A DNA stretch of 64,000 nucleotides from an uncultured Victivallales bacterium (GTDB lineage Bacteria > Verrucomicrobiota > Kiritimatiellia > UBA8416), in the NCBI GenBank assembly GCA_964609395.1, contig CAZSRU010000003.1, positions 19,635 through 83,634 of the forward strand, in the 5' to 3' direction. A model generated the notes under the pieces. That model was not told the origin of the DNA. It did no database searches and saw only the letters and a list, made by a program, of their open reading frames with translations. A program made the position numbers and the translations under genes. Within the stretch, counting starts at the first letter, position 1, and each line of letters opens with the position of its first letter. Shown here one piece after another: positions 9,285-61,200 of this stretch.

Positions 9285-9291
9285 TTGGGGC

Positions 9292-9398: not shown

Positions 9399-9428
9399 TC
9401 AATTGCCGTCGCTGGCTCACCCCGCCTG

Positions 9429-19900: not shown

Positions 19901-20532
19901 TCTTTGATTTTTCGCCCCTGCGAAAACTCTCTTTACGCTCGCTGCGCCTCGATAATACACAATTCAAGGACATTTCCTTGATTCGTGCCATGCCCTTGGA
20001 ATACCTTTCGATGGCCAATACGAAAGTCAGCGACATCAGCAGCCTGAAGGGGGGCTCGCTCGTCAATCTCTCGCTGGCCAACTGCACGGTGAGCGACCTG
20101 TCCCCCCTCGCTGGCATGAAACTTAAAGAACTGAATGTCAGTGGCAGTCGCGTCGAGGATGTTTCGGTCCTCGCCAATATGCCCCTTGCCGTGCTGAATC
20201 TTTCCGGCACGCGGGTCCGTGACATTTCCGCGCTGGCCAATATGCCCCTTGCCGTGCTGAATCTTTCCGGCACGCGGGTCCGTGACATTTCCACGCTGGC
20301 CAATATGCCCCTCGTCCGGCTGCAGATCAACAACACAGCCATTAGCGATTTGACTCCGTTGATCGGTTCCCCGATTGAGCATCTGGAGGTAAGGGGCGCC
20401 GAAATCCGCGATTGGACGCCGTTGGCACGCTTGCCATTGCGTTCCATCACCGTGGACGATAGCCACGGCACTGTCCGCCAGGTCCTGCGTCAAATCCCGA
20501 CCTTGAAAACGATCAACGGCGAACCGCTCTAA
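16984..20532 (+). CDS. Hanks-type Ser/Thr kinase - single TM - helical region - C-terminal leucine-rich repeats
   Basis: GEGGMATVWKA, VAIK, IHCDIKPDN, DLG, GTPAYVSPEQ. TM LPIGLWLALGVVGLAIVAFFLF. About 17 21-aa LRRs (LxxLxLxxTxVxDLxPL), ending LRQIPTLKTING. Confidence 0.92.
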   Translation: MPPLNIPGFEILEKLGEGGMATVWKAHQLSLDRVVAIKVLSSRMTNDAGDVQRFQAEAQQAAKLKHPGIIQVYDANVLDGVYYFIMEYVAGYTVGEWVRRKGVLTEANALLVAEALADALDYAWRSAGMIHCDIKPDNVMIDGDGTLKLADLGLSRSFRGKDGGESTGEIMGTPAYVSPEQAVDAPDLDCRADIYSLGAMLYHLVTGKMLFEGESDERVLELQLSGTMADPATLNPKLSRPMCRLIEKMLSKDKVHRQADWSAVRADLALVRRGRPIVPPLPPPGASTVAREALSEPSTPVLPAHRPTQRPGLPIGLWLALGVVGLAIVAFFLFQLSSHNHSPGRPQQAVSHTSPEAVKPAAPQAEHVAAKEAFAKAEQQALRLPLAFDQNIDLFRRVVDIAPQSQAARQAQAQISRLEALRRTRCGEVLNQLRDAAAPLLETGQFEQASQQYETYAGELARETLANRQRIADDLRQREKQAQELLQQQARQAQKQYEALLDEIVKTLTSKGIAEAVATTTMAEDAPQLNSKKEELHALVQLLNGAAQLKRRVMDSFTPSVGKEIDVSLNSGTKRLLIRRVRDGVVVGSQTSKVGPRQMTVDVSFEYKDLANKEILARLGADDDPQVALKKGLMALEAKAYEPARRFFSKTSPLLAERLVAVVDQVEVSTVAEVAKTAFLNLCAGAGWSVNLDERTEFLARLEQEQLPATKGPQILAMVESYRAQHGNSSFGREVAPLLAAMEQAAQREAPEPEPLMPAAPPRPVVDAKPADPRLIQNSLLQCNPQLGVSQIEILANEEGIVQDISIISEGLEDISPLDAVHTRTLACSAVSKYNRRTDVPKCKLADLSPLKGADGLESLFLGQARVQDLTPLKGLALRQLTIRSCPVADIKALRELPFLETLELRDTNVRDLTPLAALPLLSLDISATTITELNVLARLPLRHLDISDTQILNLGVLTAMPLERLDLSGTRIFDFSPLRKLSLRSLRLDNTQFKDISLIRAMPLEYLSMANTKVSDISSLKGGSLVNLSLANCTVSDLSPLAGMKLKELNVSGSRVEDVSVLANMPLAVLNLSGTRVRDISALANMPLAVLNLSGTRVRDISTLANMPLVRLQINNTAISDLTPLIGSPIEHLEVRGAEIRDWTPLARLPLRSITVDDSHGTVRQVLRQIPTLKTINGEPL
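20173..20310 (+). repeat. Near-perfect 63-bp tandem duplication (one 21-aa LRR unit, about 2.2 copies)
   Basis: GCCAATATGCCCCTTGCCGTGCTGAATCTTTCCGGCACGCGGGTCCGTGACATTTCC starts at 20173 and 20236, and GCCAATATGCCC starts again at 20299. Confidence 0.95.
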
Positions 20533-32076: not shown

Positions 32077-32134
32077 ATTAATATTGAAGAAAGTTGGGTC
32101 GAGAAGCGTTTATAGTTTAAAAGGGAGGAAGACT

Positions 32135-46715: not shown

Positions 46716-46990
46716 TGATTGAGAAGAAAGCCATCATACAGAACGCGCAGGGGATCCATTGCCGCCCGTCGGCCATGATCATCCGCTTCGTCAACAGCTA
46801 CGAGGGGGATATCCTGGTGCGCACGGACCGAGGCGCGACCAGCCTGCGCTCGATCCTGGAGTTGATGTCGCTGGAATTGTATCCGGGCTCGGAAGTCACC
46901 ATCCAGGTCAACGGGCCGGACGAGGCCGAATTCTGCCACGACCTGGTCGCCCTTTTCGAGACGCACTTCGATTTCCCCCCGATCGGGTAG
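46715..46990 (+). CDS. HPr family phosphocarrier protein
   Basis: NAQGIHCRPSA (His15 motif), RSILELMSL (Ser46 region), GPDE. The start overlaps the mlaD stop (TAATG). Confidence 0.9.
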   Translation: MIEKKAIIQNAQGIHCRPSAMIIRFVNSYEGDILVRTDRGATSLRSILELMSLELYPGSEVTIQVNGPDEAEFCHDLVALFETHFDFPPIG

Positions 46991-47195
46991 CGCCCACCCG
47001 CATCTAATCCCCCGCTGAATATTGAAAAGGGTGCAAAGGGTTCAGCGTACTGGTATTGCAAGGGTCGGTGGGTGAGAGTCCAAGCGTGTCAATTAAGCCA
47101 CAACTAGCTGTCGAATCGTTGTTTACCGAGAACGTCGCCGTTTTTCCTTGGAGGGAGAGCGTCCTCGCGAGCCGTACCGAGCAAAGGTAATATCG

Positions 47196-47219
47196 GTCGG
47201 GCAAGGGTGCCCGACTTAC
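47196..47219 (-). repeat. REP-like hairpin directly after the dtd stop codon
   Basis: Minus strand reads GTAA-GTCGGGCA-CCCT-TGCCCGAC. The TAA is the dtd stop codon. Confidence 0.65.
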
Positions 47220-47677
47220 GGTAAAGCAGCCGAATCGGACGATAGTTCGATGGTCACCGGGCCGTCGTTGATCAGTTCCACTTGCATGCTGGCCCCGAAC
47301 CGTCCGGTAGCGACCTTGGCGATTCCCGGTTGCCGGGCCAGTTCCGCGACATAGGTGTTGTAAAGCGTTTCGGCGATCGCCGGGTCGCCTGCGCGGATGA
47401 AGCTGGGGCGGTTGCCCTTGCGGGTGTCGGCATAAAGCGTGAACTGCGAGATGACCAGCGCCTCCCCGCCGATGTCCGCAAGCGAGCGGTTCATTCGTCC
47501 TTCGTCGTCCGGGAAAATCCGCAGCGTGGCGCTCCGCTGCGCCAGCTTCAGGGCATCTGTCTGGGTATCGCCCGTGCGCACCCCGACCAGCACGACGAGC
47601 CCTCGGCCGATCTGGCCGATGGTTTCGCCGTCAACCGAGACCGAGCCGCTGGCGGCCCGCTGGATCAGGACTTTCAT
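47216..47677 (-). CDS. dtd: D-aminoacyl-tRNA deacylase
   Basis: MKVLIQRA, IGRGLVVLVGV, SQFTLYAD..KGNRPSF, TGRFGASMQVELINDGPVT. Confidence 0.97.
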   Translation of the reverse strand: MKVLIQRAASGSVSVDGETIGQIGRGLVVLVGVRTGDTQTDALKLAQRSATLRIFPDDEGRMNRSLADIGGEALVISQFTLYADTRKGNRPSFIRAGDPAIAETLYNTYVAELARQPGIAKVATGRFGASMQVELINDGPVTIELSSDSAALP

Positions 47678-47681
47678 GTGT

Positions 47682-48479
47682 CTATTCCTTTACCGGATGG
47701 AAGAGCATGTCGGGGAATGACCCGAACGGGATACCGTTGCGCAGCACGAAGGTGCCGGGGGCATAGTCCGGCGAATCCGGGGTGGCGGTATAGAAGCGGT
47801 TGGTGTTGCCAGAGGCGACAAAAATGCCGTCGCCGCCGATATCCTCGACGCGGCGCGAGCGATAGCGCAGGTAGGTCGGCACATAGATCTCGTCGTGCCC
47901 GCACCAACCGAGGCGATAGCCCCGGTGCAGCAGGCGGCAGGTCTCGCGCGAGTAGCGGGAGAGCGATAGGCAGGCCTTGGTCAGCGGTAGCGGGCGCCGG
48001 CAGAACCAGGGGCGTTTGAAGAGGCGCACCCAGCGACCGCGGCAGTCCAGCGGGCGCTCCTGGATAATGAGCGCCAGCAGATCGGCATCGTTCCGCGAGA
48101 ACGCATCGAAGAAGGTATGCCAGTCGCCGGAGAAACGGACGTCGTACTCCACGCGCCAGAGATGCTCGTACACGGGATGCAACCGTGAGAACTGAATATA
48201 GATCATCGACATGTTACCGGGCACGAGACCGCCGCTCTCGTGACAGGCGGTCATGTCGTAATGCCGGGCGATCTGCTGCACACGGAACAGGAACACCTGC
48301 ACACCTTGCGGAATGCGGGTGTGAAGCGGATTGAGTTCCCAGTCGGCGTGCGAATTGTCGTAGCACAACCAGACGTCGAAACCCGGCGGACAGGTCGCGC
48401 GCAGATGGCGCACCTCGTCCAGCCAGGCTTCGGTCAGGCTGTGCCCTGTCGAGAGTACGGCGGTTCCTGGCGACCTCAT
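47682..48479 (-). CDS. Hypothetical protein, possibly GT-A-like (DUF3405-like)
   Basis: LWRVEYDVRFSGDW, GHDEIYVPT, C-terminal LFHPVK. Family resemblance recognised by eye only. Confidence 0.55.
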   Translation of the reverse strand: MRSPGTAVLSTGHSLTEAWLDEVRHLRATCPPGFDVWLCYDNSHADWELNPLHTRIPQGVQVFLFRVQQIARHYDMTACHESGGLVPGNMSMIYIQFSRLHPVYEHLWRVEYDVRFSGDWHTFFDAFSRNDADLLALIIQERPLDCRGRWVRLFKRPWFCRRPLPLTKACLSLSRYSRETCRLLHRGYRLGWCGHDEIYVPTYLRYRSRRVEDIGGDGIFVASGNTNRFYTATPDSPDYAPGTFVLRNGIPFGSFPDMLFHPVKE

Positions 48480-48481
48480 GC

Positions 48482-48940
48482 CTAGCCGAGGGCGAGGATG
48501 GAGAAGACCATTACGAAGATGGCGACCGTCTCGATGATGCCGAGGGCCGCCAGGTAGTTCGTGAATCCTTCGCCCGTCTCGGCCAGCGCGTCACTGGCGG
48601 CGGCACCGGCGCGGCCCTGCAGCCAGGCCGAGAGACCCAGGCCCATGCCGGCAAGCAAGCCGGCGATGAGCAGTCCCTGCCACGGGTGCCCCGCCTCGAT
48701 CCTCGTCTTCATGGAGAACATCAGCACGATGCCGTAGATGGTCTGCGAAAGCGGGGCGCCGACGAACGTCAGGAGCATGAACGGGGCGGCCTTGCCGTGG
48801 GCATAGCACTTCTTCCATGCACCGATCGATGCCGCCGCCGCCGTGCTCGCGCCGAGCGCCGAACCGAACGCCGCCATCACCAGTGCCGCGATACTCCCCA
48901 CCTGTCCCATAGCCGTGTTGAAACTGATTGCTTCATCCAT
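48482..48940 (-). CDS. ntpK: V-type ATP synthase subunit K (proteolipid)
   Basis: Four-TM proteolipid; GSALG, PLSQTIYG, WLQGRAGAAA, GIIETVAIF. Confidence 0.93.
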   Translation of the reverse strand: MDEAISFNTAMGQVGSIAALVMAAFGSALGASTAAAASIGAWKKCYAHGKAAPFMLLTFVGAPLSQTIYGIVLMFSMKTRIEAGHPWQGLLIAGLLAGMGLGLSAWLQGRAGAAASDALAETGEGFTNYLAALGIIETVAIFVMVFSILALG

Positions 48941-49011
48941 GATCTCTCTCCTTCTGTTTTCGTTTAACCGTTTTGCCTATAACTTTGCCATTTTGTCACA
49001 CTTGTCGGTGG

Positions 49012-49084
49012 ACGACTACGGCGACGACTACGGATTACAATTCGATCTTGCGCATGCGTCAACCGTAGTCGTCGCCGTAGTCGT
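49012..49084. repeat. Perfect 22-bp-arm inverted repeat between V-ATPase I and K genes (CGACTA hexamer family)
   Basis: ACGACTACGGCGACGACTACGG (49012-49033) and CCGTAGTCGTCGCCGTAGTCGT (49063-49084). Confidence 0.92.
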
Positions 49085-49094
49085 TTTCCGATTT

Positions 49095-50876
49095 CTAATC
49101 GCGTGCCAGACCGGCAAACGGCCGGTAGGGGACGCCCTTCCATTCGATGTTCTTGTGCATTGAGAATTCCAGCGTGTTCAGGCGCACCCCGTGTACCAGG
49201 ATCCCGAGTGCGCAGAGGATGATGTTGATCCCGTGCCCCAGCAGCAGGATCAGGGCGAACAGCGGCGCGGTCCAGATATTGTCAATTCCGATGTCCGCCG
49301 CCATGCCGTTGAAGCTCTGCGCCACGGCCAGCGAGGCGATGCCGACGGCGAACAGGCGGATGTAGGAGATGATGTCGACAAAGCAGTTGACGATACTGAG
49401 CGGGAACATCGCATGCTGGATCCAGTCGTTCTTGAAGTCCTTTGGCGAGGTCATGAACAATAGGATCAGGACCAGGCTGGAGATAAATAGCGGCAGGAAA
49501 AATCCTGGGTATGGGCGACCGAGTACCATGTTCTGCGCGGTCAGGTACATCGACCAGACCAGTCCGATCCAGCCGATCTGCGCCAGTGTCTTCACGGCGG
49601 GGGCCAGCGCGATGGCATTCCAGATATGGGCGATGGTCAGATGGACGGCACCGATCAGGAAGCAGAGCGTGATCAGGTTGTTCTGCGAGTCAGCCCCGGT
49701 CAGCCAGCCGATCTGAAGGCGCTGCAGCGGTGCGGGCAGGGCCTGTGGCGCGATCCCGAAATAATTGCCGGTCAGCGCGCCCCAGATGATCGTGCAGACG
49801 CTCAGGATGCCGAAGAGCACGAAGGGGTAGGCGGGGGCTTTCGGCTTCTTCGCGCGGGCGACTAGCGTGGCCAGCAGGAAGATCACGCCATAGCCGGCGT
49901 CGCCGATCAGGATCGCGAAGAAGATACTGAAGAAGATCAGGAACAGTCCGCTGATGTCCGATTCCCGGTAGCCGGGCAGGATCGCCAGCATCTGCATGAC
50001 CGCCTTGATCGGGGTGACCCACTTCGGCATCTTCAGCAGCGTCGGCACGGCATCGTCGGCGTCCGGCTCGTCGATCTTGAGTGCCCAACCGTGATCGGTG
50101 GCGGCACGGCGGATCGCCGGGACGGTGTCGGCGGGGGCGAATCCGCCCAGATAGGCGATACGTCCTTGCCGGCCCATCCCGTCATGCACGGCGGCAAACG
50201 ACTCCACCTCGCGTCGCCGGTGCAGTTCATCCTCGACCAGGTGTTTGCAGGGGGTCAGGGCATGCAGCTCCTGCTTGATGGCCTCGATCTCGCGTTCATG
50301 CCTGCCGATGTCCGCATCCAGCTCGGAAAGCGATTTCACGGGCAGGTGGAACGGGACCGCCTCCAGCGCGAAATCGCCGTGGCCGATGGCGGCCAGGTGG
50401 GTTCCCTTCTTGTCGGTCGAGAGCACGTGCACCTGGACGCCGTCCGGTACGGCAAGCGTTGCCAGGTCGCGAGTGTGATAGAGTTTGACGACGATCCCCT
50501 TCGCGGCCAGTTCGCGGATGCTGGCGGGTGTGAAATCGCCAAACGGCGCCTGTGAATGGCGCGTATGGCGCAGGACATCGAGTTGCTCCGCGAGGTGGGT
50601 GCGTTGCCGGTGCAGGCCCGCCACTTCCTTAATCAGGCCGTCCGCGTCCAGTGCGGTCCTGCAGCAGGGGTGGTGGAACGGCGTTTCAAAGGCATGCAGC
50701 GTCTCGAGTGCCAGCCGGGCGGTTTCCACGGCACCGACGGCCGCTGGTAGGGTCTCGCCGGTCCCCTCCTTTTTCGGGACGACATGCAGGACGCCCAGCT
50801 CGCGCAACTGGTGCAGCGCCTGATGCTTATCTGCCTCCAGGCAGACGATTGAAACCTTTTTCATCGGGGTAATCAT
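49095..50876 (-). CDS. ntpI: V-type ATP synthase subunit I
   Basis: MITPMKKVSI, LGVLHV, VPTLLK, FFAILIGDAGYG, DIISYIRLFAVG, HGVRLNTLEFS. Confidence 0.95.
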   Translation of the reverse strand: MITPMKKVSIVCLEADKHQALHQLRELGVLHVVPKKEGTGETLPAAVGAVETARLALETLHAFETPFHHPCCRTALDADGLIKEVAGLHRQRTHLAEQLDVLRHTRHSQAPFGDFTPASIRELAAKGIVVKLYHTRDLATLAVPDGVQVHVLSTDKKGTHLAAIGHGDFALEAVPFHLPVKSLSELDADIGRHEREIEAIKQELHALTPCKHLVEDELHRRREVESFAAVHDGMGRQGRIAYLGGFAPADTVPAIRRAATDHGWALKIDEPDADDAVPTLLKMPKWVTPIKAVMQMLAILPGYRESDISGLFLIFFSIFFAILIGDAGYGVIFLLATLVARAKKPKAPAYPFVLFGILSVCTIIWGALTGNYFGIAPQALPAPLQRLQIGWLTGADSQNNLITLCFLIGAVHLTIAHIWNAIALAPAVKTLAQIGWIGLVWSMYLTAQNMVLGRPYPGFFLPLFISSLVLILLFMTSPKDFKNDWIQHAMFPLSIVNCFVDIISYIRLFAVGIASLAVAQSFNGMAADIGIDNIWTAPLFALILLLGHGINIILCALGILVHGVRLNTLEFSMHKNIEWKGVPYRPFAGLARD

Positions 50877-51496
50877 GGCCGTGCCTCCGCTGGGGGTTCG
50901 ATGGCGGTTGCAATTGTACGCCTCTTCGCGAGTTTGCCGCGGGCGACGGCGGCGGTCTGTTCATCACCCAGATAGATCTTGATAGTGCGGATATTCTCGC
51001 GGCATTCGGGGATCTTGACCTTTTCAAACAGGTTGACCCGCTGCGCGGTCGTGCGCAATTCCTCGCTGATCAGGCGGCGCTGCTCGTGCAGGATGGTGGT
51101 CTCGGCCCGCAGGCGGATCAGCGCGTCCATCACCTCCTGGGCATCGTCGAGCCAAGGGGGGGTCGTGAACAGGTCGGGTTCGACGCGGTTTAGGGAGATC
51201 GACTGGAGTACCGGGATCGCCACACCGGCGATATTACCCGTGTCGGTCTCGATCTGCCTGAGCGTGACCATCAGTTCCTCCGGCACGGGTTCCGAGAGCA
51301 GCGCCACCCACTGCCTGAGCCCCTGCATGGCGGTATCGAAGGCGACCTGTTTCTCGTCGATGCGGAAGTCGATGATCTGGATCTCGCCCTGGAGCTGCTG
51401 CTTCTTGAGCTGCAGCATCGGCAGGAAGCGCCGGAAGCGGCGCAACGCCTCGTTCTGCGCCTTGAGTTCATTCTTGGTATGTTTGATCTTCGCCAT
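50873..51496 (-). CDS. ntpD: V-type ATP synthase subunit D
   Basis: KIKHTKNELK, LPMLQLKK, NIAGVAIP, ELRTTAQRVNLFEKVKIP. Confidence 0.95.
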   Translation of the reverse strand: MAKIKHTKNELKAQNEALRRFRRFLPMLQLKKQQLQGEIQIIDFRIDEKQVAFDTAMQGLRQWVALLSEPVPEELMVTLRQIETDTGNIAGVAIPVLQSISLNRVEPDLFTTPPWLDDAQEVMDALIRLRAETTILHEQRRLISEELRTTAQRVNLFEKVKIPECRENIRTIKIYLGDEQTAAVARGKLAKRRTIATAIEPPAEARP

Positions 51497-51520
51497 GGGC
51501 AGATGCTCGAATCCGGTTTA

Positions 51521-52855
51521 TCAGGCTTTTGCCGTTTTGCTGTCGGTGGTGATGGCGTCCGGCTTCTTCGGCCAGAACGCATCCAGGATCTTGGAACTGA
51601 TGCCGGTTTCCATCGGCTCGAAGCAATCGGACAGGATCTCCCAGCCGCGGTCAAGGGCATGCTCGAGGGGGATGTTGACGGAAAGATCCATCATTTCCTT
51701 CTCGAACCGCTCCCCGTATTTCAGGAGCTTCTTGTCCCAGTTGCTCATCCGGAAGCCCATGGTCTGCTTCTCGAGGGTTTCGCGATAGCCTGCGAAAAGC
51801 TGGATCATGGTGTCCATGATCGTGCGGTGGTCCGCGCGGGTCTTGCCATTGACCTGCTGCTTGAGACGGCTGAGGGAGCCGAAGGGCTCGATACGACCGC
51901 CGCGCAGGTAGAACTGGCCCTCGGTGATGTAGCCGGTGTTGTCGGGTACCGGGTGGGTCACGTCGTCGCCGGGCATGGTGGTCGCCGCCAGGATCGTGAT
52001 CGAGCCGGCACCGTCGAAGTCGACCGCCTTCTCATAGCGCGAGGCGAGCTGGCTGTAGAGGTCGCCGGGATAACCGCGGTTGGAGGGGATCTGCTCCATG
52101 GTGATGGCGATTTCCTTCATCGCGTCGGCGAAGTTGGTCATGTCCGTCAGCAGCACCAGCACGCGCTTGCCCTCGAGGGCGAACTGTTCCGCCACGGCCA
52201 GGCTGACATCCGGCACGAGCAGGCATTCGACCGTCGGGTCGGCGGCGGTATGCACGAACATCACACTGCGCGAAAGGGCACCGCTCTCCTCAAGCGTATC
52301 GCGGAAATAGAGGTAGTCGTCGTGCTTCAGGCCCATGCTGCCGAGGATGATCACATCGACCTCGGCCTGGAGGGCGATGCGCGCCAGCAGCGCGTTGTAG
52401 GGCTCGCCAGCGCGGGCGAAGATCGGCAGTTTCTGCGATTCGACCAGCGTGTTGAACACGTCGATCATCGGGATACCGGTACGCACCATGTTTCTCGGGA
52501 TGATGCGCTTGGCCGGGTTGACCGAGGGGCCGCCGATATTGACATCGCCGCCGTGCAGGACTGGGCCCTTGTCGCGCGGGACCCCGGTGCCGGTGAAGAC
52601 GCGGCCGAGCAGGGAGTCGCTGAATGGGATCTGCATGGGATGGCCCAGGAAGCGCACCTTCGCATCGGTCGCCACGCCGCGCCCGCCGGCGAAGACCTGA
52701 AGTGAGACCTCGGTGTCGTGCAGGCGGATCACCTGCGCCAGCGAGGTGCCCATGCGGGACGTCACCTCCGCCAGTTCCTTATATTTGACCCCTTCGGCGT
52801 GAAGGGTGATCACATTGCCTGCGATCTTTTCCACGCGGTGATAAAGCTTATGCAT
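51521..52855 (-). CDS. ntpB: V-type ATP synthase subunit B
   Basis: [62 protein letters not shown]. Confidence 0.97.
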
Positions 52856-54584
52856 CGTTCGTGACCTCCGCTACCATCGCCCGAAGTTGTTCTTCCAGCG
52901 CCTTGAATTTCCCGTCCTGCATCGAAACGCCGTTCCAGTCCTTGTGGAGCTGCGTGAGTTTATGAAAGAAATGCCGGGCCTCGTCCTTCTCCTTGAACCG
53001 CATGTCGGCCCGCAGGAACCCGGTCATGACGCCGAACACGTATTTCTGGCGGTCGCCGGGCGTGGCGGCATCCACCTCGTTGAAGGCATTCTGCTGCAGG
53101 TAGGCGGCATCAAGGTATTCCGACTCCAGGTAAAGGATGAAGTCCTCCATGGCGGTGCCTTCCTCGCCGACGACCTTCATCATCTGCCCGGTCTCGGTAC
53201 CGCGCTTGAGCGTGGCCCGGGCAAACTCGACGTCGACGGCATCCACGACGCTCGGGTATTTCGACCAGCTATCGAGCGGATCGATCGCCGGGTAGCGGCG
53301 CGCGTCGGAGCGGGCACGGGAGAGCCCGTGGAAAGCCCCGACGACCTTGAGTGTCGCCTGGGTGACGGGTTCGTCGAAGTTGCCGCCGGCGGGGCTGACC
53401 GTGCCGCCGATCGTGACCGAGCCGATCGAGCCGTCCTTTAGGCGGACGATGCCGCCCCGTTCGTAGAAGGCCGCGATCACGGATTCGAGGTAGGCGGGGA
53501 AGGCCTCCTCGCCGGGGATCTCCTCCAGGCGGCCCGAGGTCTCGCGCAGGGCCTGCGCCCAGCGGGAGGTCGAATCCGCCATCAGCAGCACGTTCAGCCC
53601 CATCTGGCGATAGTAGTCGGCCACGGTGATCCCGGTATAGACCGAGGCCTCGCGGGCGGCCACCGGCATGGAACTGGTGTTGCAGATGATCACGGTCCGT
53701 TCCATCAGGCTCTTGCCGGTGCGCGGGTCGGTCAGCTCCGGGAATTCACGCAGCGTCTCCACCACCTCGCCGGCACGCTCGCCGCAGGCGGCGATGATCA
53801 CGATGTCGACATCCGCGTTGCGGGAGGTAAGCTGCTGGAGCACCGTCTTGCCAGCACCGAAGGGGCCGGGGATGCAGTAGGTGCCGCCACGGGCCACGGG
53901 GAAGAACGTGTCCACCGCGCGGATGGTGGTGACCAGCGGTTCCGCAGGGCGGAGGCGCTCGGCATAGGCGCGGATGGGCATCTTTACGGGCCAGCGCTGC
54001 ATCAGCCTGACTTCGCGGACATCGCCGCGCTCGTTCCTGAGCGTGGCGATGGTGTCCTCGACCGTGTAGTCGCCGGCGTTGGCCACCGAGGCGACTGTGT
54101 AGGTGCCGTCGAACAAGAACGGGACCATGATCCGGTGTTCAAAGATGCCTTCGGGCACGGTGCCGATCGTCTCGCCGGCGGTGAGGGTGTCGCCCACGGC
54201 GACCTTCGGGGTGAAAACCCATTTGCGGTCGCGGGGCAGGGCGTCGAGGTAGATTCCGCGCTGCAGGAAGAAGCCGCATTGTTCCGCCAGACGCGGCAGC
54301 GGGTTCTGCAGCCCGTCAAAGACCTGTGTCAGCAGGCCTGGTCCCAGTTCGGCGGAGAGCATCTCGCCCGTGAACTCGACGATGTCGCCGACGCCGAGGT
54401 CGGTCGTGTCCTCGAAGACCTGCATGTCGGCCAGCCGGCCGCGTACCCGCACCACCTCGCACATCAGGCGCAGGTCGCCGAGGCAGGCGTAGCCGACCTC
54501 GTTCTGGCTGATGGCGCCCTCGAACGCGACGGTCAGCATATTCCCGTTCACGCCGACAATCTTGCCGCTTGTCTGATTCGTCAT
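52848..54584 (-). CDS. ntpA: V-type ATP synthase subunit A
   Basis: [62 protein letters not shown]. Confidence 0.97.
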
Positions 54585-55189
54585 AACTTAGCCTTCATAC
54601 TGACTGCCGCCGGCGGCGGCTGTTGTTTTGCATCAGGGGTGCCGCGACCGTGTGCATCGACGCCGGTCGTGTTCAAAGCGTTGTCGATCCGTTTCAGTGC
54701 CGCTTCCGTGTCCAGTGCCGCCCAGCGCTGCGCGATGCGCAGCTTGACGGCATAGGCCAGCACGACGGTGACGGCGAGCGGATCCAAGCCAGCGAGTTCA
54801 TCCAGGTGGGTCCAGCGCAGGCGGTCGAGCGCCTGTTCTCGGTCAAGAGGGCTCGTCAAATCGAAGGCGCTTTCCACGTCATCCTTGATGTAGGTATCGA
54901 AGCCCTTGTGGGGCCGGATGCTGTCCGCGGCATCGGTCCTGCGTCTTGCCGCCCGTGCGCTGGCCACGGCGTTGCGGAGCTGGATCTCGCGGTCCAGCCA
55001 GAGGGCGGTAAACGGGTGGGCGGGCGCCTCGCCGCCCAAGTCCAGATCTCGGCAGAGCAAGGCGGCAGCCCGTGCATCGGCCGCGCCGAGATATTCCTCG
55101 CAGAGCGCCTGGAATGTTTCCGGCGTGATCGACGGATTCTGCAGGAACGTCAGTGCAGGCAGGCTGGCGATGAGATAGACGCAGTTCAT
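54581..55189 (-). CDS. V-type ATPase subunit C-like protein (DUF2764-like)
   Basis: YLIASLPAL, EIQLRNAVA..RA, EQALDRLRW..LDEL. Position between E and A, as in Chlamydia/Bacteroidetes-type operons. Confidence 0.8.
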   Translation of the reverse strand: MNCVYLIASLPALTFLQNPSITPETFQALCEEYLGAADARAAALLCRDLDLGGEAPAHPFTALWLDREIQLRNAVASARAARRRTDAADSIRPHKGFDTYIKDDVESAFDLTSPLDREQALDRLRWTHLDELAGLDPLAVTVVLAYAVKLRIAQRWAALDTEAALKRIDNALNTTGVDAHGRGTPDAKQQPPPAAVSMKAKL

Positions 55190-55821
55190 TTCGTGGCGGT
55201 TTTCCCCATGTGCTGCAAGGCACCGCTGACGATCCTGGCGAGTTGCGGCCGGAGCAGTTGTCCGATGGCGCCGGTCAGGGCCTCGCCAGTGAAGTCATGT
55301 TGCACACCGCTGTCCTTGAGCGTCACCGTGAAGCCGGAAATAACGCTGCGGCTGCCGCGGATGGTCAGCCCGCCCTTCATTTCCGTAGCGAAGGCCTTCA
55401 TGAAATAGGCGGTGACCGCCTCCTGCTGCGCCTCGCTGAGCAGGACCTCGATGGCCGTGGCCCCTTGCGCATCCGAGTAGGCCCGGATCGCCTCCTGGAT
55501 GAAACCGGGCAGGGCATCGGCATTCATGGCTGCATCCACCTGGCGGGTGACGATCCCCTGCAGGGTCTCGGTGACGGCCTCGCCGACCGAGAGGATCACA
55601 TCCCGCGCGGCCTGGCTGATCGCGTTCTCGCTGCGCTGCTGGAAAAGCCCGCTGTCGGCCTCCGCCTTCGCAAGAAGCGTCTTGGCCTGGTTCTCGGCCT
55701 CGGCCACGATGGCTTTCGCCCTGGCCTTCGCGTCCGCTGTGATCTGTGCCGCTTCCGTCTCGGCCCGGTCGATGCCGTCCTTCTGTATACGGTCCAGTAA
55801 TCCCTGAAGTTCCTCTGCCAT
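55186..55821 (-). CDS. ntpE: V-type ATP synthase subunit E
   Basis: MAEELQGLLDRIQKDGIDRAE, Ala/Glu-rich coiled coil, ISGFTV. Start at 55821 or 55827. Confidence 0.88.
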   Translation of the reverse strand: MAEELQGLLDRIQKDGIDRAETEAAQITADAKARAKAIVAEAENQAKTLLAKAEADSGLFQQRSENAISQAARDVILSVGEAVTETLQGIVTRQVDAAMNADALPGFIQEAIRAYSDAQGATAIEVLLSEAQQEAVTAYFMKAFATEMKGGLTIRGSRSVISGFTVTLKDSGVQHDFTGEALTGAIGQLLRPQLARIVSGALQHMGKTATK

Positions 55822-55834
55822 AATCATTTCCTTT

Positions 55835-56857
55835 CTAAAATACCTCGTCCGGCAGCGGCCCTAGTTCTACCGTGCCCGCTCCCTTGGATTTGGCGACCAC
55901 CAGGTTCTTGCCGAGTGCCCCCAGGATGTCCTGCAGCGTCCGCTTCTGATCCGCGGTGGTCACCAGTGCCAGGGAACCGATGGTCACGTTGATGCCGCCA
56001 TCCCCCTGGCCGACCGCCTGCTCGCTGACCGCGTTAACCAGTTGGCCCAGCTTCCCGCGGATCTCGCTCTCGGTCATGCCTGAAAGGTAGATCACGAACT
56101 CGTCGGCCCCGAAGCGGGCGATCACATCCATCTCGCGTACACAACCCTTGACGATGGTGGCCACCTCCGCGAGCAGGGCGTGGGCCTGGTCGATACCGTG
56201 GGTCTCGATATAGCTGCGGAAGGCCTCGACGGCGATCAGCGCCAGCCCGACCCCGTAGCCATGAGCCCGTGCACGTTGCAGTTCGACGCCGAGAGCCGGG
56301 ATGAATGCCTTGTACTGGAGAACGTGGGTGGCATCGTCGAGCTGCGAGAGTTTCTTGCTGGCCTGGATCAGGTCGAAACGCTCGATCATCGAGCCGATCA
56401 GCATCCCGATCACCTGTAGGTGCAGCAGATCCGATTCGTCGAAGACCGCATGGTCCGCGCGGTCGCAGAAAATGTAGCCGACGCCGCGCTGGTTGCGTAC
56501 CACCGGGGCGATCACGGCCGAGGTGAAATCGTGCTCCAGCTTCAGGCTCTGGTAGACTACGGAATCGCGGTCCACATCATTCAGCAGCAGGGGGCGCTGC
56601 TCGAGCACCACCTGTTCCGCCGTCGGGCTGGGTGCCGCCTTGTGGTACTGTTTGACGTAGGTGTAGCTGATCTGGCGCGAGATCTTGATGCGCAGCTCGC
56701 CGGTGTCCTCGTCGATCAGGATCACGGCGACGCTCTGCGAGGGAAAATAGGATTTCATGCTGTCCATGATGACGTGCAGCCCCTCTTCCAGGGACAATGC
56801 GCCATCCGCCTTGCGCATGACATGCACAAGCCATCCGCCAAGCGATGTTCTGGTCAT
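55835..56857 (-). CDS. GAF domain + degenerate GGDEF domain protein (RxxD I-site retained)
   Basis: GAF features (VILIDEDTGEL, SAVIAPVV..VGYIFCD, FDESDL..L); then VREMDVIARFGADEF. No TM segment seen. Confidence 0.88.
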   Translation of the reverse strand: MTRTSLGGWLVHVMRKADGALSLEEGLHVIMDSMKSYFPSQSVAVILIDEDTGELRIKISRQISYTYVKQYHKAAPSPTAEQVVLEQRPLLLNDVDRDSVVYQSLKLEHDFTSAVIAPVVRNQRGVGYIFCDRADHAVFDESDLLHLQVIGMLIGSMIERFDLIQASKKLSQLDDATHVLQYKAFIPALGVELQRARAHGYGVGLALIAVEAFRSYIETHGIDQAHALLAEVATIVKGCVREMDVIARFGADEFVIYLSGMTESEIRGKLGQLVNAVSEQAVGQGDGGINVTIGSLALVTTADQKRTLQDILGALGKNLVVAKSKGAGTVELGPLPDEVF

Positions 56858-56893
56858 GAATTAATCCTTTCTCGCGTCGTTTTCCTCCATAGG

Positions 56894-56970
56894 TGGTGGG
56901 CGATACAGGACTCGAACCTGTGACCCCTACCATGTCAAGGTAGTGCTCTAACCAACTGAGCTAATCGCCC
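56894..56970 (-). tRNA. tRNA-Val(GAC)
   Basis: Reverse complement GGGCGATTAGCTCAGTTGGTTAGAGCACTACCTTGACATGGTAGGGGTCACAGGTTCGAGTCCTGTATCGCCCACCA. Anticodon stem CTACC/GGTAG, loop TTGACAT, T-arm GGTTCGA, encoded CCA. Confidence 0.98.
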
Positions 56971-57027
56971 GCGGAAGGTTGAACGCCTGTTCCGTAAAGG
57001 AAATGACGTTCTTCAGCGTTGGGCGGG

Positions 57028-57056
57028 ACTATAGCGTTGACGGGGGGCTGTGTCAA
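57028..57056 (-). promoter_or_regulatory. Near-consensus sigma70 promoter for tRNA-Val (TTGACA-N17-TATAGT)
   Basis: Plus-strand tgtcaa at 57051-57056 and actata at 57028-57033, with a 17-nt spacer. Confidence 0.8.
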
Positions 57057-57276
57057 CCCGTTTGCTTTTAATTGCAAAAATAACCGCCGTAACCGCCGTG
57101 CGGTGAAGCAGAAGGCTTGTAGCGCCTGCTGTACGGTTCTATCCATCAAAACGTATTGCGGGGGGCACGACCCCGCTGCGGTGCTGGCACCGAATCGTGC
57201 CATGATGAGAATTCCAGAATTGCGAATTCGGGCTTTCCGCGGTCGGGGCGGGTGTGGTAGAATGCCGGGCGTGAAG

Positions 57277-60200
57277 ATGCGTCGTATAGTGATTCCGGCA
57301 GTGTTACTGGCGGCGGTGATCGGGTGGCGGATCGGATGGCGGCCTTTATGGCAGGCTCGATCAGCGCCAATCCCATCGCCTGCCGCCGGTGTGGAGCAGT
57401 CGGCTGCGGCGGTCCCGGTGGCTCCCCCCGGAGCCGCCTTGCCGCTGGTCCTGCCGCTCAAGGGCGGGCCGTCTCGCGCGCTGTCGGGAGGCGTGCCCTC
57501 GGCAGCCGCCAGTCCGGCCACCGCGCCAGTGGCGGCTGGTGAGACGTATGTACGCGAATACCTGGCGGACGCGACCGGCAAGTTCGGTGTCCTGCGCGTG
57601 GAGGAGCGCTGGCGGCGGACGGCGGATCCGGCGGCGGGCGACCAGTTTCTGGGGCGGACCACGATGGCGGGCGATCATGTGATGGTACAGCTCCGCGAGG
57701 GGCGCACGCAGGCGGATCTTGAAAAAACGCTGCGTCGCCACGGGTTGCGGCTGCGGTCGGTACTGGCGGCTCCGCGCGGGTTCCTGGTGGCGGTCGAGGA
57801 GGCCGATGCCGGGACCGTGCCGTACCTGGTCCGGCTGCTCTCGGACGATCCTTCCGTGGGCATTGCCGAGCCGGATTACGTCTACACCATCAGCGAGACG
57901 CGTCCGGATGATCCCCGGTACGGTTCGCTATGGGGCATGGAAAAGATCGGCATGCCGCGTGTCTGGGATTCCCTCACCGGGACCGGCGGCGTGGTCGTGG
58001 CCGTGTTCGACACCGGCATGGATCTCATGCACCCCGATCTGGCGGCAAACCTCTGGATCAATCCGGGCGAGATCGACGGCAACGGCTTCGATGATGATGG
58101 CAATGTCTATACCGATGACGTCAGCGGCTGGGACTTCTACGATGACGACAACGACCCGAGTGATGCGCAACAGCACGGCACGCATGTCGCGGGCACGGTC
58201 GGTGCGGTCGGCAACAATGGCATTGGTGTGACCGGGGTAGGGTGGAACATCCGTCTGCTGCCGATCAAGTTCTTCGGTTTGAACAGCGCGGGACAGCTTG
58301 AAGGATATGCCTCCGATGCCACGTCGGGCATGTATTACGTGATTGATCTGGCTCGGCGCGGTGTACCGGTGCGCGTGACCAGCCACAGTTGGGGCGGGAC
58401 GAGTGAATCGCTGATGCTCAAGGATGCCTTCCGGATCGCGGGCTTGTACGGCGTCCTGCATGTGGCGGCGGCAGGCAACGGCTACGGGGTCGAGCGGGAC
58501 AACGACCTCTACCCGCATTACCCCGCCAGCTTTGACCTGAACAACGTCGTGGCGGTAGCCAATACCACGGCCAGCGACGGGCTCAGCAGCGGTTCCTACT
58601 ACGGGGCGGCATCCGTGGATCTCGGTGCGCCGGGCGAGAATATCCTGAGTGCGGTGCCGGGCGGGGGCTACGGGACCAAGACCGGTACCTCCATGGCCAC
58701 GCCGCATGTCGCCGGGGCACTGGCCTTGCTGTTCGACCTCTATCCCGGCATGTCCTGGCAGGAGGCGCGCGCACTGCTGTTTGCCGGCGTCGAACCGCTC
58801 GCCTCGCTCAGCGGGCGCTGCACGACCGGCGGACGGCTGGATGTGTACAAACTCTTCGCTCAGATCGACACGCGAATCCTGCACGAACCGTTGCAGAACA
58901 GCGAGACCGGGAACACCGCGTTCCGGGTCGAGGCCCTGCTGCGGCCGGGCGTCTCCTTCGTGGACACCAATCGGGTCCAGGTGCTCTGGAACATGAGCGG
59001 CAGCACCAACACCTTCACGACCAATCTCATGACCCATGCCGGCGGCAACCGGTTCGAGGCCTGGCTGCCGGGCAAGCCCCAGGGCACGGCGATTTACTAC
59101 ATGATCCGCGTGGAAACGCCCGAAGGCGCGGTCTCCACCCATCCGGCAGACGCCCCTGCCTCCCTACACCGGTTTGATATCACCTATCCGGTGCCGCTTT
59201 CCGTGTACGGCTATCCGGGCTACTACGGTGTGGTTTCGCCTGCCTACGGGGCTGGCACCGCCGCCTGGGGGTCGGTGGTCGAGGCCACGGCACCGGCCTT
59301 CACCGTGCCGTCCGGCGGATGGCGTTGGCGCTGCGACGGCTGGGACGGGGCAGGCTCCGTTCCGCTCTCGGGCAGCACGAACCGGGTGGTGTTCGAGATC
59401 CGCGAGCAATCGTACCTGCTGTGGTGGTGGCGCGAACAGGTCGCGCTGACGCAGGTATCGGATCCGCCCGGGATCGTCAACTCGGTGAGCTGGACCGACG
59501 CGGGTGTGGCGGCCGGTACGGGGAAGGCTCCCGAAACCGCGCTGGTCGGTGGCGTGCTGTTCGCCTTTACCGGCTGGGAAATCGATGGCGCCCGATTCCC
59601 GGATCAGTCCGCCCCGTCGCTGAATCCGGCTATCCCGCTGACCCGTCATGTCCCGCAGACGGCCGTGGCCCGTTACCTGCCGGCCAACCAGGATTCGGAT
59701 GGCGATGGCCTGCCCGATTGGTGGGAGCTTTTCTATTTCAATCACCTGTCGCATGACGGAAGCGCCGACCCCGACGGCGACGGGTTCACGAACTCGCGTG
59801 AATTCGCCGATCAATCGAATCCGACCGACGGCTCGTCCGTGCCGGTGGGACCTGTGATCCTGCACGAACCGCTGCCCGCAACGGTCGGTTCGCCGACGCC
59901 CTGGCGGATCGAGGCGTCGATCACGGATCGTGTCGAGGTCGAGATAGCCATCCTGCACTGGCAGCGCAACGGCGGGGCCTGGAACGAGCGGCGAATGGCG
60001 CTGGATGGCGGGCTCTACGTGGCGTCGATTCCCGCGCCCGACACGCCGGGCGATGCGTTCGCGTACCGGATTGAAGCCGTGGACAAAGCCGGGAACGCGA
60101 GCGTCTCCCCGACGTTCGCCTTCACGGTGCGTTACCCGCTGCTCTCGTATGCGCCCGGTTCGGCAACCCTCGCGACCGGCATGGGGGGCTCGGCGGTGCT

Positions 60201-61200
60201 GCGGGTGACGGTGACCAATGCCGGCAATGCCGACCTGGTCTGGCAGACGGCGAATGCACGGCATGACGCGGTTGATGCCGACCCGGCGGGATGGACGCAC
60301 GGCGGTTTGTCGAGCCAGTGGCATGTCTCTACTCGCGAGTCGTACTCCGGGCCCTTCTCCTGGTTCTGTGGCGATGAGCAGGGGGCTGGCTACAACAATT
60401 GGATGGATGCATCGCTCGATACCCCGCCGGTTCTCCTAGGGGGTGATGCGAGGCTGCGCTTCATGCACTGGGCCGAGATGGAATACGACGGCCGCCCCGG
60501 TTTCGCGAACTATTACTGGGATGGCGCGGTCGTCGAGATCTCGCGGAATGGCGGGGTTACTTTCGAGTCGATCGCGCCGGTTGGCGGCTATCCTTACCGG
60601 ATCACCCCCAACGATGACTCTCCCTTCGCGTATCACCGTCCCTGTCTCGGGGGGATGACCGGCGGATGGGAGGCGGTCGAGTTCGATCTGGCGGCTTATG
60701 CCGGCGAGACGGTGCAGGTGCGTTTCCGCTTCGGGACGGACGGTTACGTGACCTCGCGCGGCTGGTTCGTGGATGACATCACCTTCTCGTGGGGAACGCC
60801 CTGGCTGGTGGCACCGGCAGGCGGCAGCGTGGCTGCCGGGACGAGCGCGGTGGTGGAACTGCGGCTGGATGCCGGGGCACTGGCACCGGGGACGTATCGC
60901 GGCGGCTGGACGGCGGTCTGCAACGCGCCGGGATTCGCCTGGTTCGGCGTGCCGGTCACGCTCCAGGTTTCGGCGGAAACCACGATGCGACTGGATACGG
61001 AGGATGCGGGGCAGTTCGTGCTGACCTGGCCCAGCCAGGCAGGGCGGACGTATCACTTGTCGTCCGGGACGGGGCTTGTGGACTGGGCCGGCGTCCCCGG
61101 TTTCACGAACATGCCGGGCCAGACGGGCTTCATGTCCTACACCGGCACGATCGAATCCCTGCCGAAGAAGTTCTACCGCATCCAGGAAACACAGCCGTAG
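57277..61200 (+). CDS. Exported S8 (subtilisin-like) serine peptidase with multiple C-terminal accessory domains
   Basis: N-terminal hydrophobic leader, propeptide (AEPDY), triad FDTG / HGTHVAG / GTSMATPHVAG, DSDGDGLPDWWE and DPDGDGFTN repeats, jelly-roll domain (HWAEME, WDGAVVEIS, VRFRFGTD..GWFVDDI), tail LTWPSQAGRTY..KFYRI. Start may be the GTG at 57271. Confidence 0.9.
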   Translation: MRRIVIPAVLLAAVIGWRIGWRPLWQARSAPIPSPAAGVEQSAAAVPVAPPGAALPLVLPLKGGPSRALSGGVPSAAASPATAPVAAGETYVREYLADATGKFGVLRVEERWRRTADPAAGDQFLGRTTMAGDHVMVQLREGRTQADLEKTLRRHGLRLRSVLAAPRGFLVAVEEADAGTVPYLVRLLSDDPSVGIAEPDYVYTISETRPDDPRYGSLWGMEKIGMPRVWDSLTGTGGVVVAVFDTGMDLMHPDLAANLWINPGEIDGNGFDDDGNVYTDDVSGWDFYDDDNDPSDAQQHGTHVAGTVGAVGNNGIGVTGVGWNIRLLPIKFFGLNSAGQLEGYASDATSGMYYVIDLARRGVPVRVTSHSWGGTSESLMLKDAFRIAGLYGVLHVAAAGNGYGVERDNDLYPHYPASFDLNNVVAVANTTASDGLSSGSYYGAASVDLGAPGENILSAVPGGGYGTKTGTSMATPHVAGALALLFDLYPGMSWQEARALLFAGVEPLASLSGRCTTGGRLDVYKLFAQIDTRILHEPLQNSETGNTAFRVEALLRPGVSFVDTNRVQVLWNMSGSTNTFTTNLMTHAGGNRFEAWLPGKPQGTAIYYMIRVETPEGAVSTHPADAPASLHRFDITYPVPLSVYGYPGYYGVVSPAYGAGTAAWGSVVEATAPAFTVPSGGWRWRCDGWDGAGSVPLSGSTNRVVFEIREQSYLLWWWREQVALTQVSDPPGIVNSVSWTDAGVAAGTGKAPETALVGGVLFAFTGWEIDGARFPDQSAPSLNPAIPLTRHVPQTAVARYLPANQDSDGDGLPDWWELFYFNHLSHDGSADPDGDGFTNSREFADQSNPTDGSSVPVGPVILHEPLPATVGSPTPWRIEASITDRVEVEIAILHWQRNGGAWNERRMALDGGLYVASIPAPDTPGDAFAYRIEAVDKAGNASVSPTFAFTVRYPLLSYAPGSATLATGMGGSAVLRVTVTNAGNADLVWQTANARHDAVDADPAGWTHGGLSSQWHVSTRESYSGPFSWFCGDEQGAGYNNWMDASLDTPPVLLGGDARLRFMHWAEMEYDGRPGFANYYWDGAVVEISRNGGVTFESIAPVGGYPYRITPNDDSPFAYHRPCLGGMTGGWEAVEFDLAAYAGETVQVRFRFGTDGYVTSRGWFVDDITFSWGTPWLVAPAGGSVAAGTSAVVELRLDAGALAPGTYRGGWTAVCNAPGFAWFGVPVTLQVSAETTMRLDTEDAGQFVLTWPSQAGRTYHLSSGTGLVDWAGVPGFTNMPGQTGFMSYTGTIESLPKKFYRIQETQP

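Follow-up and report, generated by a model that had tools for sequence, protein, structure and literature searches.

GAF and GGDEF domains are combined in several described signaling proteins. Dcsbis (PA2771), PadC, LOV-DGC, and the GAF–GGDEF protein Lcd1 of Leptospira are sensor–coiled-coil–GGDEF cyclases, which are active and carry the GG(D/E)EF motif, the β1 aspartate, and the Asn/Asp guanine contacts. PelD, the c-di-GMP receptor for the Pel polysaccharide of Pseudomonas aeruginosa, has a GAF domain and a non-catalytic, degenerate GGDEF domain retaining RxxD; it is membrane-anchored, encoded in the pel operon, and possesses a second Arg in addition to RxxD. It is established that a degenerate GGDEF domain can serve as a c-di-GMP receptor if its I-site is intact (PelD, PopA, CdgA), YeaI being another I-site receptor, while FimX and PdeA have GTP-sensing degenerate GGDEF domains, and GdpP, an ATP-binding one. 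As for ATPases, Trampari and colleagues reportedly found in 2015 that c-di-GMP binds the rotary export ATPases FliI, HrcN, and ClpB2. Such binding provides a precedent for second-messenger action on relatives of the F/V-type catalytic subunits, but it involves the ATPase itself and no GGDEF adaptor. To our knowledge, none of Dcsbis, PadC, LOV-DGC, and Lcd1 is linked to an ATPase operon, and none of PopA, CdgA, YeaI, FimX, PdeA, and GdpP has the stand-alone GAF architecture considered below or an association with a rotary ATPase. Little is known about post-transcriptional regulation of bacterial V-type ATPases, and in the literature searched we found no link of GGDEF, c-di-GMP, or GAF signaling to them.

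The locus studied here belongs to a stretch of 64,000 nucleotides, referred to as the window, and comprises a gene for a 340-aa protein with a GAF and a degenerate GGDEF domain, followed by the genes of a V-ATPase. Its features are as follows.

57028..57056, minus strand: sigma-70-like promoter TTGACA-17-TATAGT upstream of tRNA-Val, 11/12 matches
56894..56970, minus strand: tRNA-Val (anticodon GAC; ARAGORN and Rfam RF00005, 72 bits), 36 nt upstream of the GAF–GGDEF start codon
56865..56872, minus strand: Shine–Dalgarno sequence AGAAAGGA of the GAF–GGDEF gene, 7 nt ahead of ATG 56857, read from the sequence
55835..56857, minus strand: coding sequence of the 340-aa GAF/degenerate-GGDEF protein (ORF call, Pfam, NCBIfam, AF2 model)
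56381..56797, minus strand: GAF domain, residues 21–159, the best-conserved part over three clades (Pfam GAF_2, E 9e-12)
56345..56437, minus strand: long linker (signaling) helix, residues 141–171 (helix H141-171 of the AF2 model)
55877..56344, minus strand: GGDEF-fold domain, residues 172–327, catalytically degenerate (Pfam GGDEF, E 1e-18)
56126..56137, minus strand: R241-E-M-D244, RxxD I-site-type motif, exactly five residues (VIARF) before GADEF
56096..56110, minus strand: G250-A-D-E-F254 replacing GG(D/E)EF, computed from the ORF start; A251 in 109/109 family members
55186..55827, minus strand: V-ATPase subunit E, probable true start ATG 55821 (NCBIfam PRK01558, E 2e-39, under the curated cut-off)
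54581..55189, minus strand: DUF2764 protein, in the position of subunit C/d in classical V/A operons (Pfam PF10962, E 1e-10)
52848..54584, minus strand: V-ATPase catalytic subunit A (Pfam)
51521..52855, minus strand: V-ATPase subunit B (Pfam)
50873..51496, minus strand: V-ATPase subunit D (Pfam ATP-synt_D, E 7e-36)
49095..50876, minus strand: V-ATPase subunit I (a), conserved in related loci (weak Pfam V_ATPase_I match)
48482..48940, minus strand: V-ATPase subunit K (c-ring proteolipid; Pfam ATP-synt_C)

A preliminary description, made from the same DNA, had proposed that the GAF–GGDEF gene is co-expressed with the V-ATPase, and the arrangement of the transcription unit agrees with this. The promoter ahead of tRNA-Val, described there as the only clear one, is indeed the only minus-strand sigma-70-like site in 46900..57300, and no minus-strand terminator-like site was seen from this promoter to the end of the operon; in particular, no promoter-like or terminator-like sites were found between the GAF–GGDEF gene and the gene of subunit E (ntpE). 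The two genes are separated by 7–13 nt, and the stop codon of the former (TAG, 55837..55835) overlaps, as had been noticed, the Shine–Dalgarno sequence AGAAAGGA preceding the start codon of the latter. Given the spacing from this sequence and the MAEELQ start of two orthologues (L023, L026), subunit E probably starts at ATG 55821 (MAEELQ...) rather than at 55827. No riboswitch or other known RNA element was identified in the leader with Rfam at gathering scores. Co-transcription of the GAF–GGDEF gene with those of the V-ATPase is thus almost certain, and this gene, as the first protein-coding one of the unit driven by the tRNA-Val promoter, would be expressed together with the pump.

The domain composition given in the preliminary description, an N-terminal GAF domain followed by GGDEF in a soluble protein, holds as well. 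The GGDEF fold is recognized concordantly by Pfam (PF00990, 67.9 bits with the cut-off of 23.8), TIGR00254 (60.3 bits, cut-off 37.4), the AF2 model (mean pLDDT 87; GAF, helix 141–171, GGDEF fold), and Foldseek. The sequence and the model, both lacking a hydrophobic N-terminal segment, support a soluble, single-chain protein. The best Foldseek match is the GAF–GGDEF cyclase Dcsbis (4zmu, E 3e-17), followed by other coiled-coil sensor cyclases; hence both the predicted secondary structure and the structural match show the GAF–linker–GGDEF sensor architecture of the Dcsbis/Lcd1 type, with the same order of the GAF domain, the long linker helix, and the GGDEF fold. By sequence, the closest solved GAF domain is 5w10 (E 1e-4), which we take to be the cAMP-binding GAF domain of Lcd1; as this is a single weak match, ligand assignment from sequence similarity was dropped. 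Lcd1 is activated by cAMP, and the degenerate GGDEF domain of FimX senses GTP (PMC8846402). GGDEF domains of FimX are among both the sequence and the structure matches of the window protein. As in PopA, CdgA, YeaI, FimX, PdeA, and GdpP, the GGDEF fold would here have been repurposed for ligand binding or interaction, but the guanine-binding residues that GTP sensing requires are replaced.

The family of the window protein is tightly conserved and consists of proteins of about 340 aa from Kiritimatiellota-type PVC MAGs (58–95% identity); alignment columns were counted over 109 proteins, and the state of R241, also over 28 genomes. Unlike the active sensor cyclases, this family has lost the GG(D/E)EF motif, the β1 aspartate, and the guanine contacts, in line with the preliminary description, which had called the GGDEF domain dead on account of GADEF at 56096–56110 (the coordinates, recomputed from the ORF start, are the same) and of altered DxDxFKxxND and TGLxNR motifs. 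In profile alignments to solved cyclases, LIAVEAFRSYIE stands opposite DIDxFKxxND, and THVLQYK, opposite TGLPNR. The position of the metal-binding Asp in strand β1 (D327 of PleD; position 209) is occupied by Ala in the window protein and by Ser or Ala in the family, with Asp in 0/109 members. Among the guanine-contacting positions, that of PleD N335 is Ile, Val, or Leu across the family, whereas all 109 members have His (H226) at that of PleD D344. Ala (A251) likewise invariably replaces the second Gly of GGDEF, the position of PleD R446 is variable, and basal members have SADRL in place of the motif. Since the degenerate motifs are conserved throughout the family, these are not chance features of one sequence, and since the catalytic Asp is found in no member, the family is not a cyclase; the columns thus support a predicted lack of cyclase activity. 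Most of the strongly conserved positions belong to the GAF domain and the linker: out of 41 positions conserved (≥93%) over three clades, 23 fall in residues 1–140, nine in 141–199, and nine in 200–340.

The adjacency to the V-ATPase, observed in the window, recurs in many relatives. In 16 out of 27 informative genomes, the window included and down to 57% identity, the GAF–GGDEF gene is directly upstream of and co-directional with the E–DUF2764–A–B–D–I–K operon, with gaps of about 5–370 nt that are mostly operon-like (the V-clade median is about 40 nt). Three more genomes have the gene nearby: in one (L025) the operon is inverted, so that the two are head-to-head at 172 nt, and in two the distance is 1.5 and 8 kb. 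The outer flanks vary while the junction of the gene and the ATPase persists. In the remaining eight genomes of the same clade the adjacency is lost, the neighbors there being unrelated (fucokinase, amylomaltase, S49 peptidase, PMI). In the intergenic gaps of about 350 nt in two loci (L008, L009), neither a riboswitch or known RNA (Rfam, gathering scores) nor a clear promoter or terminator was found. The suggestion that the gene occupies the usual place of the small G/H stator genes did not survive this comparison, as every related locus has the same seven-gene operon with E first, whether or not the GAF–GGDEF gene precedes it. Seven-gene V-ATPase operons work in other phyla without a gene of this kind, and therefore it does not encode a core subunit. 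Replacement of a missing stator subunit was similarly rejected: only GAF and GGDEF domains were found in the protein, with no homology to the G/H/F or other structural subunits, and in eight related genomes the gene is away from the operon.

Two sister clades, at 28–34% identity, extend the comparison to another type of rotary ATPase. Their genes are located tail-to-tail with the 3′ end of an F1Fo operon in nine out of 22 informative loci of one (the P0125 clade) and in three out of three of the other (the P0131 clade). Since the neighbor is F1Fo there and V-type here, the rotary-ATPase neighborhood spans a switch of the ATPase type, and the ATPase is the sole neighbor common to all three clades. 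As the genes converge in the F-type case, co-transcription does not follow from this adjacency. It lends weight to the idea of a link to rotary ATPases and is silent on c-di-GMP.

Taking this into account, we tentatively favor, with slightly less than even confidence, the reading in which the protein is a non-enzymatic GAF sensor or adaptor, co-expressed with the rotary ATPase and probably functionally tied to it. The soluble and probably dimeric protein would consist of a GAF sensor, a signaling helix of about 30 residues, and a GGDEF fold that does not synthesize c-di-GMP. A small ligand may bind the strongly conserved GAF domain, which would be the primary sensor; the linker helix would pass the signal on to the dead GGDEF domain, serving as an output or interaction module, and the output could act on the activity, assembly, or expression of the ATPase, or else on the energy or ion state that it serves. 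In the window copy, where RxxD is intact, c-di-GMP might be a second input, on which the family as a whole would not depend. Such a protein, co-expressed with the pump and having relatives next to F1Fo, is a concrete and testable candidate for V-ATPase control in an anaerobic PVC lineage that has been little studied, and possibly an example of a signaling gene retained at the rotary ATPase locus during an exchange of the ATPase type. Together, these data hint at an undescribed link between a signaling family and rotary ATPases.

The serious rival is inherited synteny with no functional link, which we consider rather unlikely: the protein would be a conserved general signaling or housekeeping protein keeping an ancestral position, the F1Fo operon having been displaced in situ by the V-type one, and the co-transcription in the window would be an accident of a short gap. 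The unrelated nadC gene is upstream in 17 loci of the P0125 clade, that is, more often than the F-ATPase is adjacent, birA is found in 14 loci of this clade and in four basal V-clade loci, and PFOR is upstream in seven V-clade loci; the synteny with nadC and birA means that inherited gene order can explain part of the pattern. Several independent losses of the adjacency left the gene itself in place, in L023 and L026 accumulated insertions separate the gene from the operon, and the convergence of the F-type adjacency also suits this explanation. On the other hand, neither nadC nor birA occurs in the P0131 clade, leaving the ATPase alone as shared by all three clades; the adjacency has outlived a change of the ATPase type and orientation, as well as the inversion in L025; and most gaps in the V-clade are operon-like. 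By our estimate, it would also be improbable for a V operon acquired horizontally to land by chance beside this very gene, at about one in a few thousand junctions. Among the observations above, the loss of adjacency in eight out of 27 genomes, the retention of nadC exceeding that of the F-ATPase, and the convergence of the F-type adjacency were counted against the proposed role.

A stronger version of the sensor/adaptor reading, unlikely in our view, is that the family is dedicated to the regulation of rotary ATPases in Kiritimatiellota. It would bind the V-type here and the F-type in the sister clades, and pumping or synthesis would be switched by the GAF ligand, as well as by c-di-GMP in proteins with an intact RxxD. 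If so, this would be the first case of control of a prokaryotic V-ATPase by a second messenger or a GAF ligand, and the regulator would have followed the ATPase across the F-to-V replacement.

We regard as distinctly unlikely a PelD-like receptor, where c-di-GMP bound at RxxD of the dead GGDEF domain would let the complex regulate the V-ATPase, an idea close to that of the preliminary description. Its starting point stands, as R-E-M-D (56137..56126) is separated from GADEF by exactly five residues, the canonical spacing. D244 is invariant, R241 is Arg in 90/109 proteins (83%) and in 20/28 genomes, as well as in 26/27 members of the P0125 clade and 3/3 of the P0131 clade, and the co-transcription and conserved adjacency, together with the receptors of this kind mentioned above, also speak in its favor. 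As a requirement of the family, however, RxxD is weakened: R241 is missing in 17% of members and is replaced by Ser, Thr, or Gly in eight out of 28 genomes with the rest of the protein still highly conserved, including five out of 16 V-ATPase-adjacent ones (L008, L009, L018, L019, L022). Loss of this Arg does not correlate with loss of the adjacency to the V-ATPase (five losses with adjacency, three without). The secondary I-site Arg (PleD R390/PelD R402) presumably corresponds to position 272, as aligned by hand with PleD; this column contains Ala, Glu, or Thr, and the neighboring basic residues are not invariant among the 109 members.

The analogy with PelD itself comes down to the domain order, GAF first and then a degenerate GGDEF domain with RxxD. 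The window protein, unlike PelD, has no transmembrane segment, no conserved second Arg, and a long coiled-coil linker; it is encoded in a V-ATPase operon, part of the family dispenses with the RxxD Arg, its fold is that of the Dcsbis-like cyclases, and neither the 47 PDB sequence matches nor the 50 Foldseek matches listed include PelD. Membership in the PelD family, considered separately, is not supported given the absence of N-terminal transmembrane helices and of a pel operon, and of PelD from these matches. There is also no sign of a cyclase-rich lineage: in 868 kb of the window and related loci, a small and biased sample, no other GGDEF ORFs were seen except on an unrelated metagenome contig retrieved by the search (L079). 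In agreement with the preliminary description, the literature searched contained no description of a prokaryotic V-ATPase controlled by c-di-GMP or a GGDEF protein, and nothing relevant was found on degenerate GGDEF proteins with ATP synthase, or on V-type ATPases or diguanylate cyclases in Kiritimatiella. Thus, RxxD alone is no proof of a c-di-GMP receptor; binding of c-di-GMP is possible for the window copy and not required across the family, and these data argue weakly for a c-di-GMP mechanism of ATPase control.

That the protein is still enzymatic, as a diguanylate cyclase with an unusual motif or a nucleotidyl cyclase acting on a different substrate, is extremely improbable: the family does retain D252–E253, R214 (for K332), R248 (for R366), and K323 (for K442), more distant relatives still have DxD and G-x-DE, and source databases label the family “diguanylate cyclase,” but the missing β1 aspartate, the two replaced guanine contacts, the invariant Ala and the basal SADRL in the motif, and NCBIfam cyclase equivalog scores far under the cut-offs (e.g., SiaD, 63 bits vs. 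290) all oppose it. With respect to enzymatic activity, these database labels are therefore wrong.

A minor observation concerns the beginning of the transcription unit. An upstream tRNA-Val is present only in the closest relatives (L001, L002), and the tRNA was rejected as a conserved part of the unit.

In the window, the gene for the 340-aa GAF–GGDEF protein lies on the minus strand between a tRNA gene and the head of a V-ATPase operon, in the following order:

57056..57028, minus strand: sigma-70-like promoter, TTGACA-17-TATAGT
56970..56894, minus strand: tRNA-Val(gac)
56857..55835, minus strand: 340-aa ORF (the GAF–GGDEF gene), preceded by the Shine-Dalgarno sequence AGAAAGGA
55827..55186, minus strand: V-ATPase subunit E

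Downstream of subunit E on the same strand come the genes for a protein with DUF2764 and for subunits A, B, D, I, and K. The 340-aa ORF ends in TAG (55837..55835), a stop codon that shares bases with a second AGAAAGGA, and subunit E probably starts, as do its orthologues, at ATG 55821 (MAEELQ...), 7 nt past this Shine-Dalgarno sequence, rather than at the first ATG, 55827, so that the gap between the two genes is 7–13 nt, depending on the start. On the minus strand, no promoter-like or terminator-like site was seen from the tRNA promoter to the operon end, including the interval between 55835 and subunit E, where such a site would, by the preliminary description, have spoken against its proposal of a PelD-like c-di-GMP receptor co-expressed with, and possibly regulating, the V-ATPase; all its coordinates proved correct, including those of GADEF (56096–56110), REMD (56126–56137), and the stop codon (55835). 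Searches for known RNA elements at the locus yielded only tRNA-Val.

The synteny survey suggested in that description shows that the adjacency is kept in relatives: in 16 of the 27 informative genomes of the family, window included, the gene immediately precedes E-DUF2764-A-B-D-I-K on the same strand, at a distance of about 5–370 nt. In locus L025 the V-ATPase operon (5019–6788) is inverted and stands head-to-head with the GAF–GGDEF gene, the two start codons being 172 nt apart, which is a typical layout for a regulator gene and the genes it controls. A single gene, encoding a TPR-repeat peptidase of the M48 type (HExxH), separates the gene from the operon in L023 (7169–8494), and 8 kb of genes, including such a peptidase (11900–13222), do so in L026; these two loci belong to a basal subclade, and in L043 and L044 a distant relative also has a LemA–M48 pair downstream. 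Eight of the 27 genomes have no V-ATPase within 2–10 kb of the gene, and its neighbors there are unrelated. A rough NJ tree has genomes with the adjacency scattered over the whole clade, which implies ancestral linkage with several independent losses. The outer flanks are not constant: tRNA-Val is present only in the two closest relatives, and pyruvate:ferredoxin oxidoreductase (PFOR) lies upstream in seven other relatives. In L005, the same-strand upstream neighbor is a nifJ-type PFOR (1214 aa; 6260–9901, plus strand), with equivalent positions in L010, L017, L018, L019, L020, and L022. Judging by these loci, PFOR, GAF–GGDEF, V-ATPase was probably the ancestral order of the main clade.

Association with a rotary ATPase extends to sister clades of the family. 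In the P0124/P0125 clade (30–34% identity, also from Verrucomicrobia/Kiritimatiellae MAGs), the gene faces a complete F1Fo operon tail-to-tail: its neighbor is atpC, the last gene of that operon, 18–50 nt away, and at one locus the two genes overlap. The metagenome survey found this arrangement in nine of 22 informative P0125-clade loci; loci of this clade convergent with the F1Fo 3′ end are L036–L039, L058, L062, L064, L065, L072, L075, and L076. In the P0131 clade (28% identity), a pair of small conserved ORFs of about 150 and 140 aa, neither with a Pfam match, comes after the gene and is followed by a convergent F1Fo operon in all three loci (L042, L048, L049). No ATPase neighbor was seen for more distant representatives. 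The rotary ATPase operon is the sole neighbor common to the three clades, across the change of ATPase type and orientation.

Our leading, though tentative, explanation is that a non-catalytic, probably dimeric GAF sensor protein, with a dead GGDEF domain as an output or interaction module, would be made from the V-ATPase transcript and have a functional link with the rotary ATPase, or with the energy or ion state that this enzyme serves. The gene order might instead be simply inherited, with no functional link and an F operon displaced in situ by a V operon. Since unrelated genes share the regional synteny (nadC is next to the gene in 17 P0125-clade loci, and birA occurs in 14 P0125-clade and four basal V-clade loci), this is a genuine rival; we consider it somewhat unlikely, however, as only the ATPase operon persists in all three clades.

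The domains expected from the preliminary description were both detected by Pfam, GAF_2 at residues 21–159 and GGDEF at 172–327, and the protein scores far under the cut-offs of the NCBIfam cyclase equivalogs. The AlphaFold2 model (109 homologues as input, mean pLDDT 87) comprises a GAF domain, a 30-residue helix (141–171), and a GGDEF fold; its top structural match is the GAF–GGDEF cyclase Dcsbis (4zmu), followed by other sensor–coiled-coil–GGDEF cyclases. Two comparisons, profile alignment with solved cyclases and residue counts per column in 109 family members, show that the metal-binding Asp of β1 is replaced by Ser or Ala (Asp in 0/109), the guanine-contacting Asn by Ile, Val, or Leu, the guanine-contacting Asp by an invariant His, and the second Gly of GGDEF by an invariant Ala, and that the C-terminal Arg of cyclases is gone. 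By these substitutions the domain is no diguanylate cyclase, and the GGDEF domain was thus rightly called degenerate; residual enzymatic activity is highly improbable. The closest solved GAF domain by sequence is 5w10 (E 1e-4), which we take to be the cAMP-binding GAF of Lcd1, a Leptospira GAF–GGDEF cyclase, a match that does not identify the ligand of the window GAF domain. Lcd1 is activated by cAMP (PMC8846402). The window protein has the GAF–linker–GGDEF architecture of Dcsbis and Lcd1, but with catalysis lost.

The family, from MAGs labelled Kiritimatiellae, Victivallales, Lentisphaerae, Verrucomicrobia, or PVC, is tight (about 335–342 aa, 58–95% identity); the exhaustive profile search added a tail of stand-alone proteins of equal length and architecture (20–34% identity), in which the second Gly is also substituted (G-x-DE-[FILV]). 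As to control of the V-ATPase by c-di-GMP, the RxxD at canonical spacing stands, and Asp244 is invariant in the family, but Arg241 is present in only 90 of 109 proteins (across 28 genomes, R in 20, S in five, T in two, G in one) and is missing in five of the 16 genomes with a directly adjacent V-ATPase operon, the rest of the protein being highly conserved there; the equivalent of the PleD secondary I-site Arg is not conserved. Over the three clades together, 41 positions reach at least 93% conservation; the GAF domain accounts for 23 of them, the linker and first GGDEF helix for nine, and the GGDEF core for only nine. In a small and biased sample of 868 kb (window and related loci), no other GGDEF-domain ORF was found except on the unrelated metagenome contig L079, retrieved by the search itself. 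Taken together, these data indicate that the conserved function resides mostly in the GAF sensor and signaling helix; binding of c-di-GMP at the I-site is possible for the window copy and cannot be the family-wide mechanism, and a PelD-like receptor controlling the V-ATPase is doubtful. By analogy, the protein may resemble degenerate-GGDEF effectors in function, but the I-site receptor features are absent or partial. Membership in the PelD family is not supported, PelD being among neither the 50 structural matches listed nor the 47 PDB sequence matches.

The literature search found no paper tying GGDEF, c-di-GMP, or GAF signaling to V-ATPases or Kiritimatiellota ATPases. The protein type is familiar; its conserved pairing with operons for V-type and F-type ATPases is, as far as the searched literature shows, undescribed, and puts regulation of a bacterial V-ATPase within experimental reach. 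The c-di-GMP mechanism is doubtful and the functional link tentative, but comparing loci brought out a broader and stronger pattern than the sequence alone could show.

Downstream of subunit K, on the same strand, lie genes for a 265-aa DUF3405-like protein and a D-Tyr-tRNA deacylase (47216–48479, minus strand); with gaps of 1–4 nt from K onward and no terminator-like site, they may share the V-ATPase transcript. The K (c-ring) subunit (48482–48940, minus strand) contains PLSQTIYG, LQG, and IIETVA, which presumably resemble the Na+-binding signature of V-type proteolipids, and the enzyme may translocate Na+. The tRNA-Arg(cct) called by ARAGORN at 34285–34371 (plus strand) was not recovered by the Rfam tRNA model at the gathering score, falls inside a 2136-aa ORF with high GC3 (32084–38494), and is probably a false positive. 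The window also encodes two notably large proteins, a 1182-aa Ser/Thr kinase whose C-terminal part has leucine-rich repeats (16984–20532, plus strand) and a subtilase with an InhA-like MAM domain (1393 aa; 57019–61200, plus strand), whose listed start (TTG, 57019) falls in the tRNA-Val promoter region (57028–57056).
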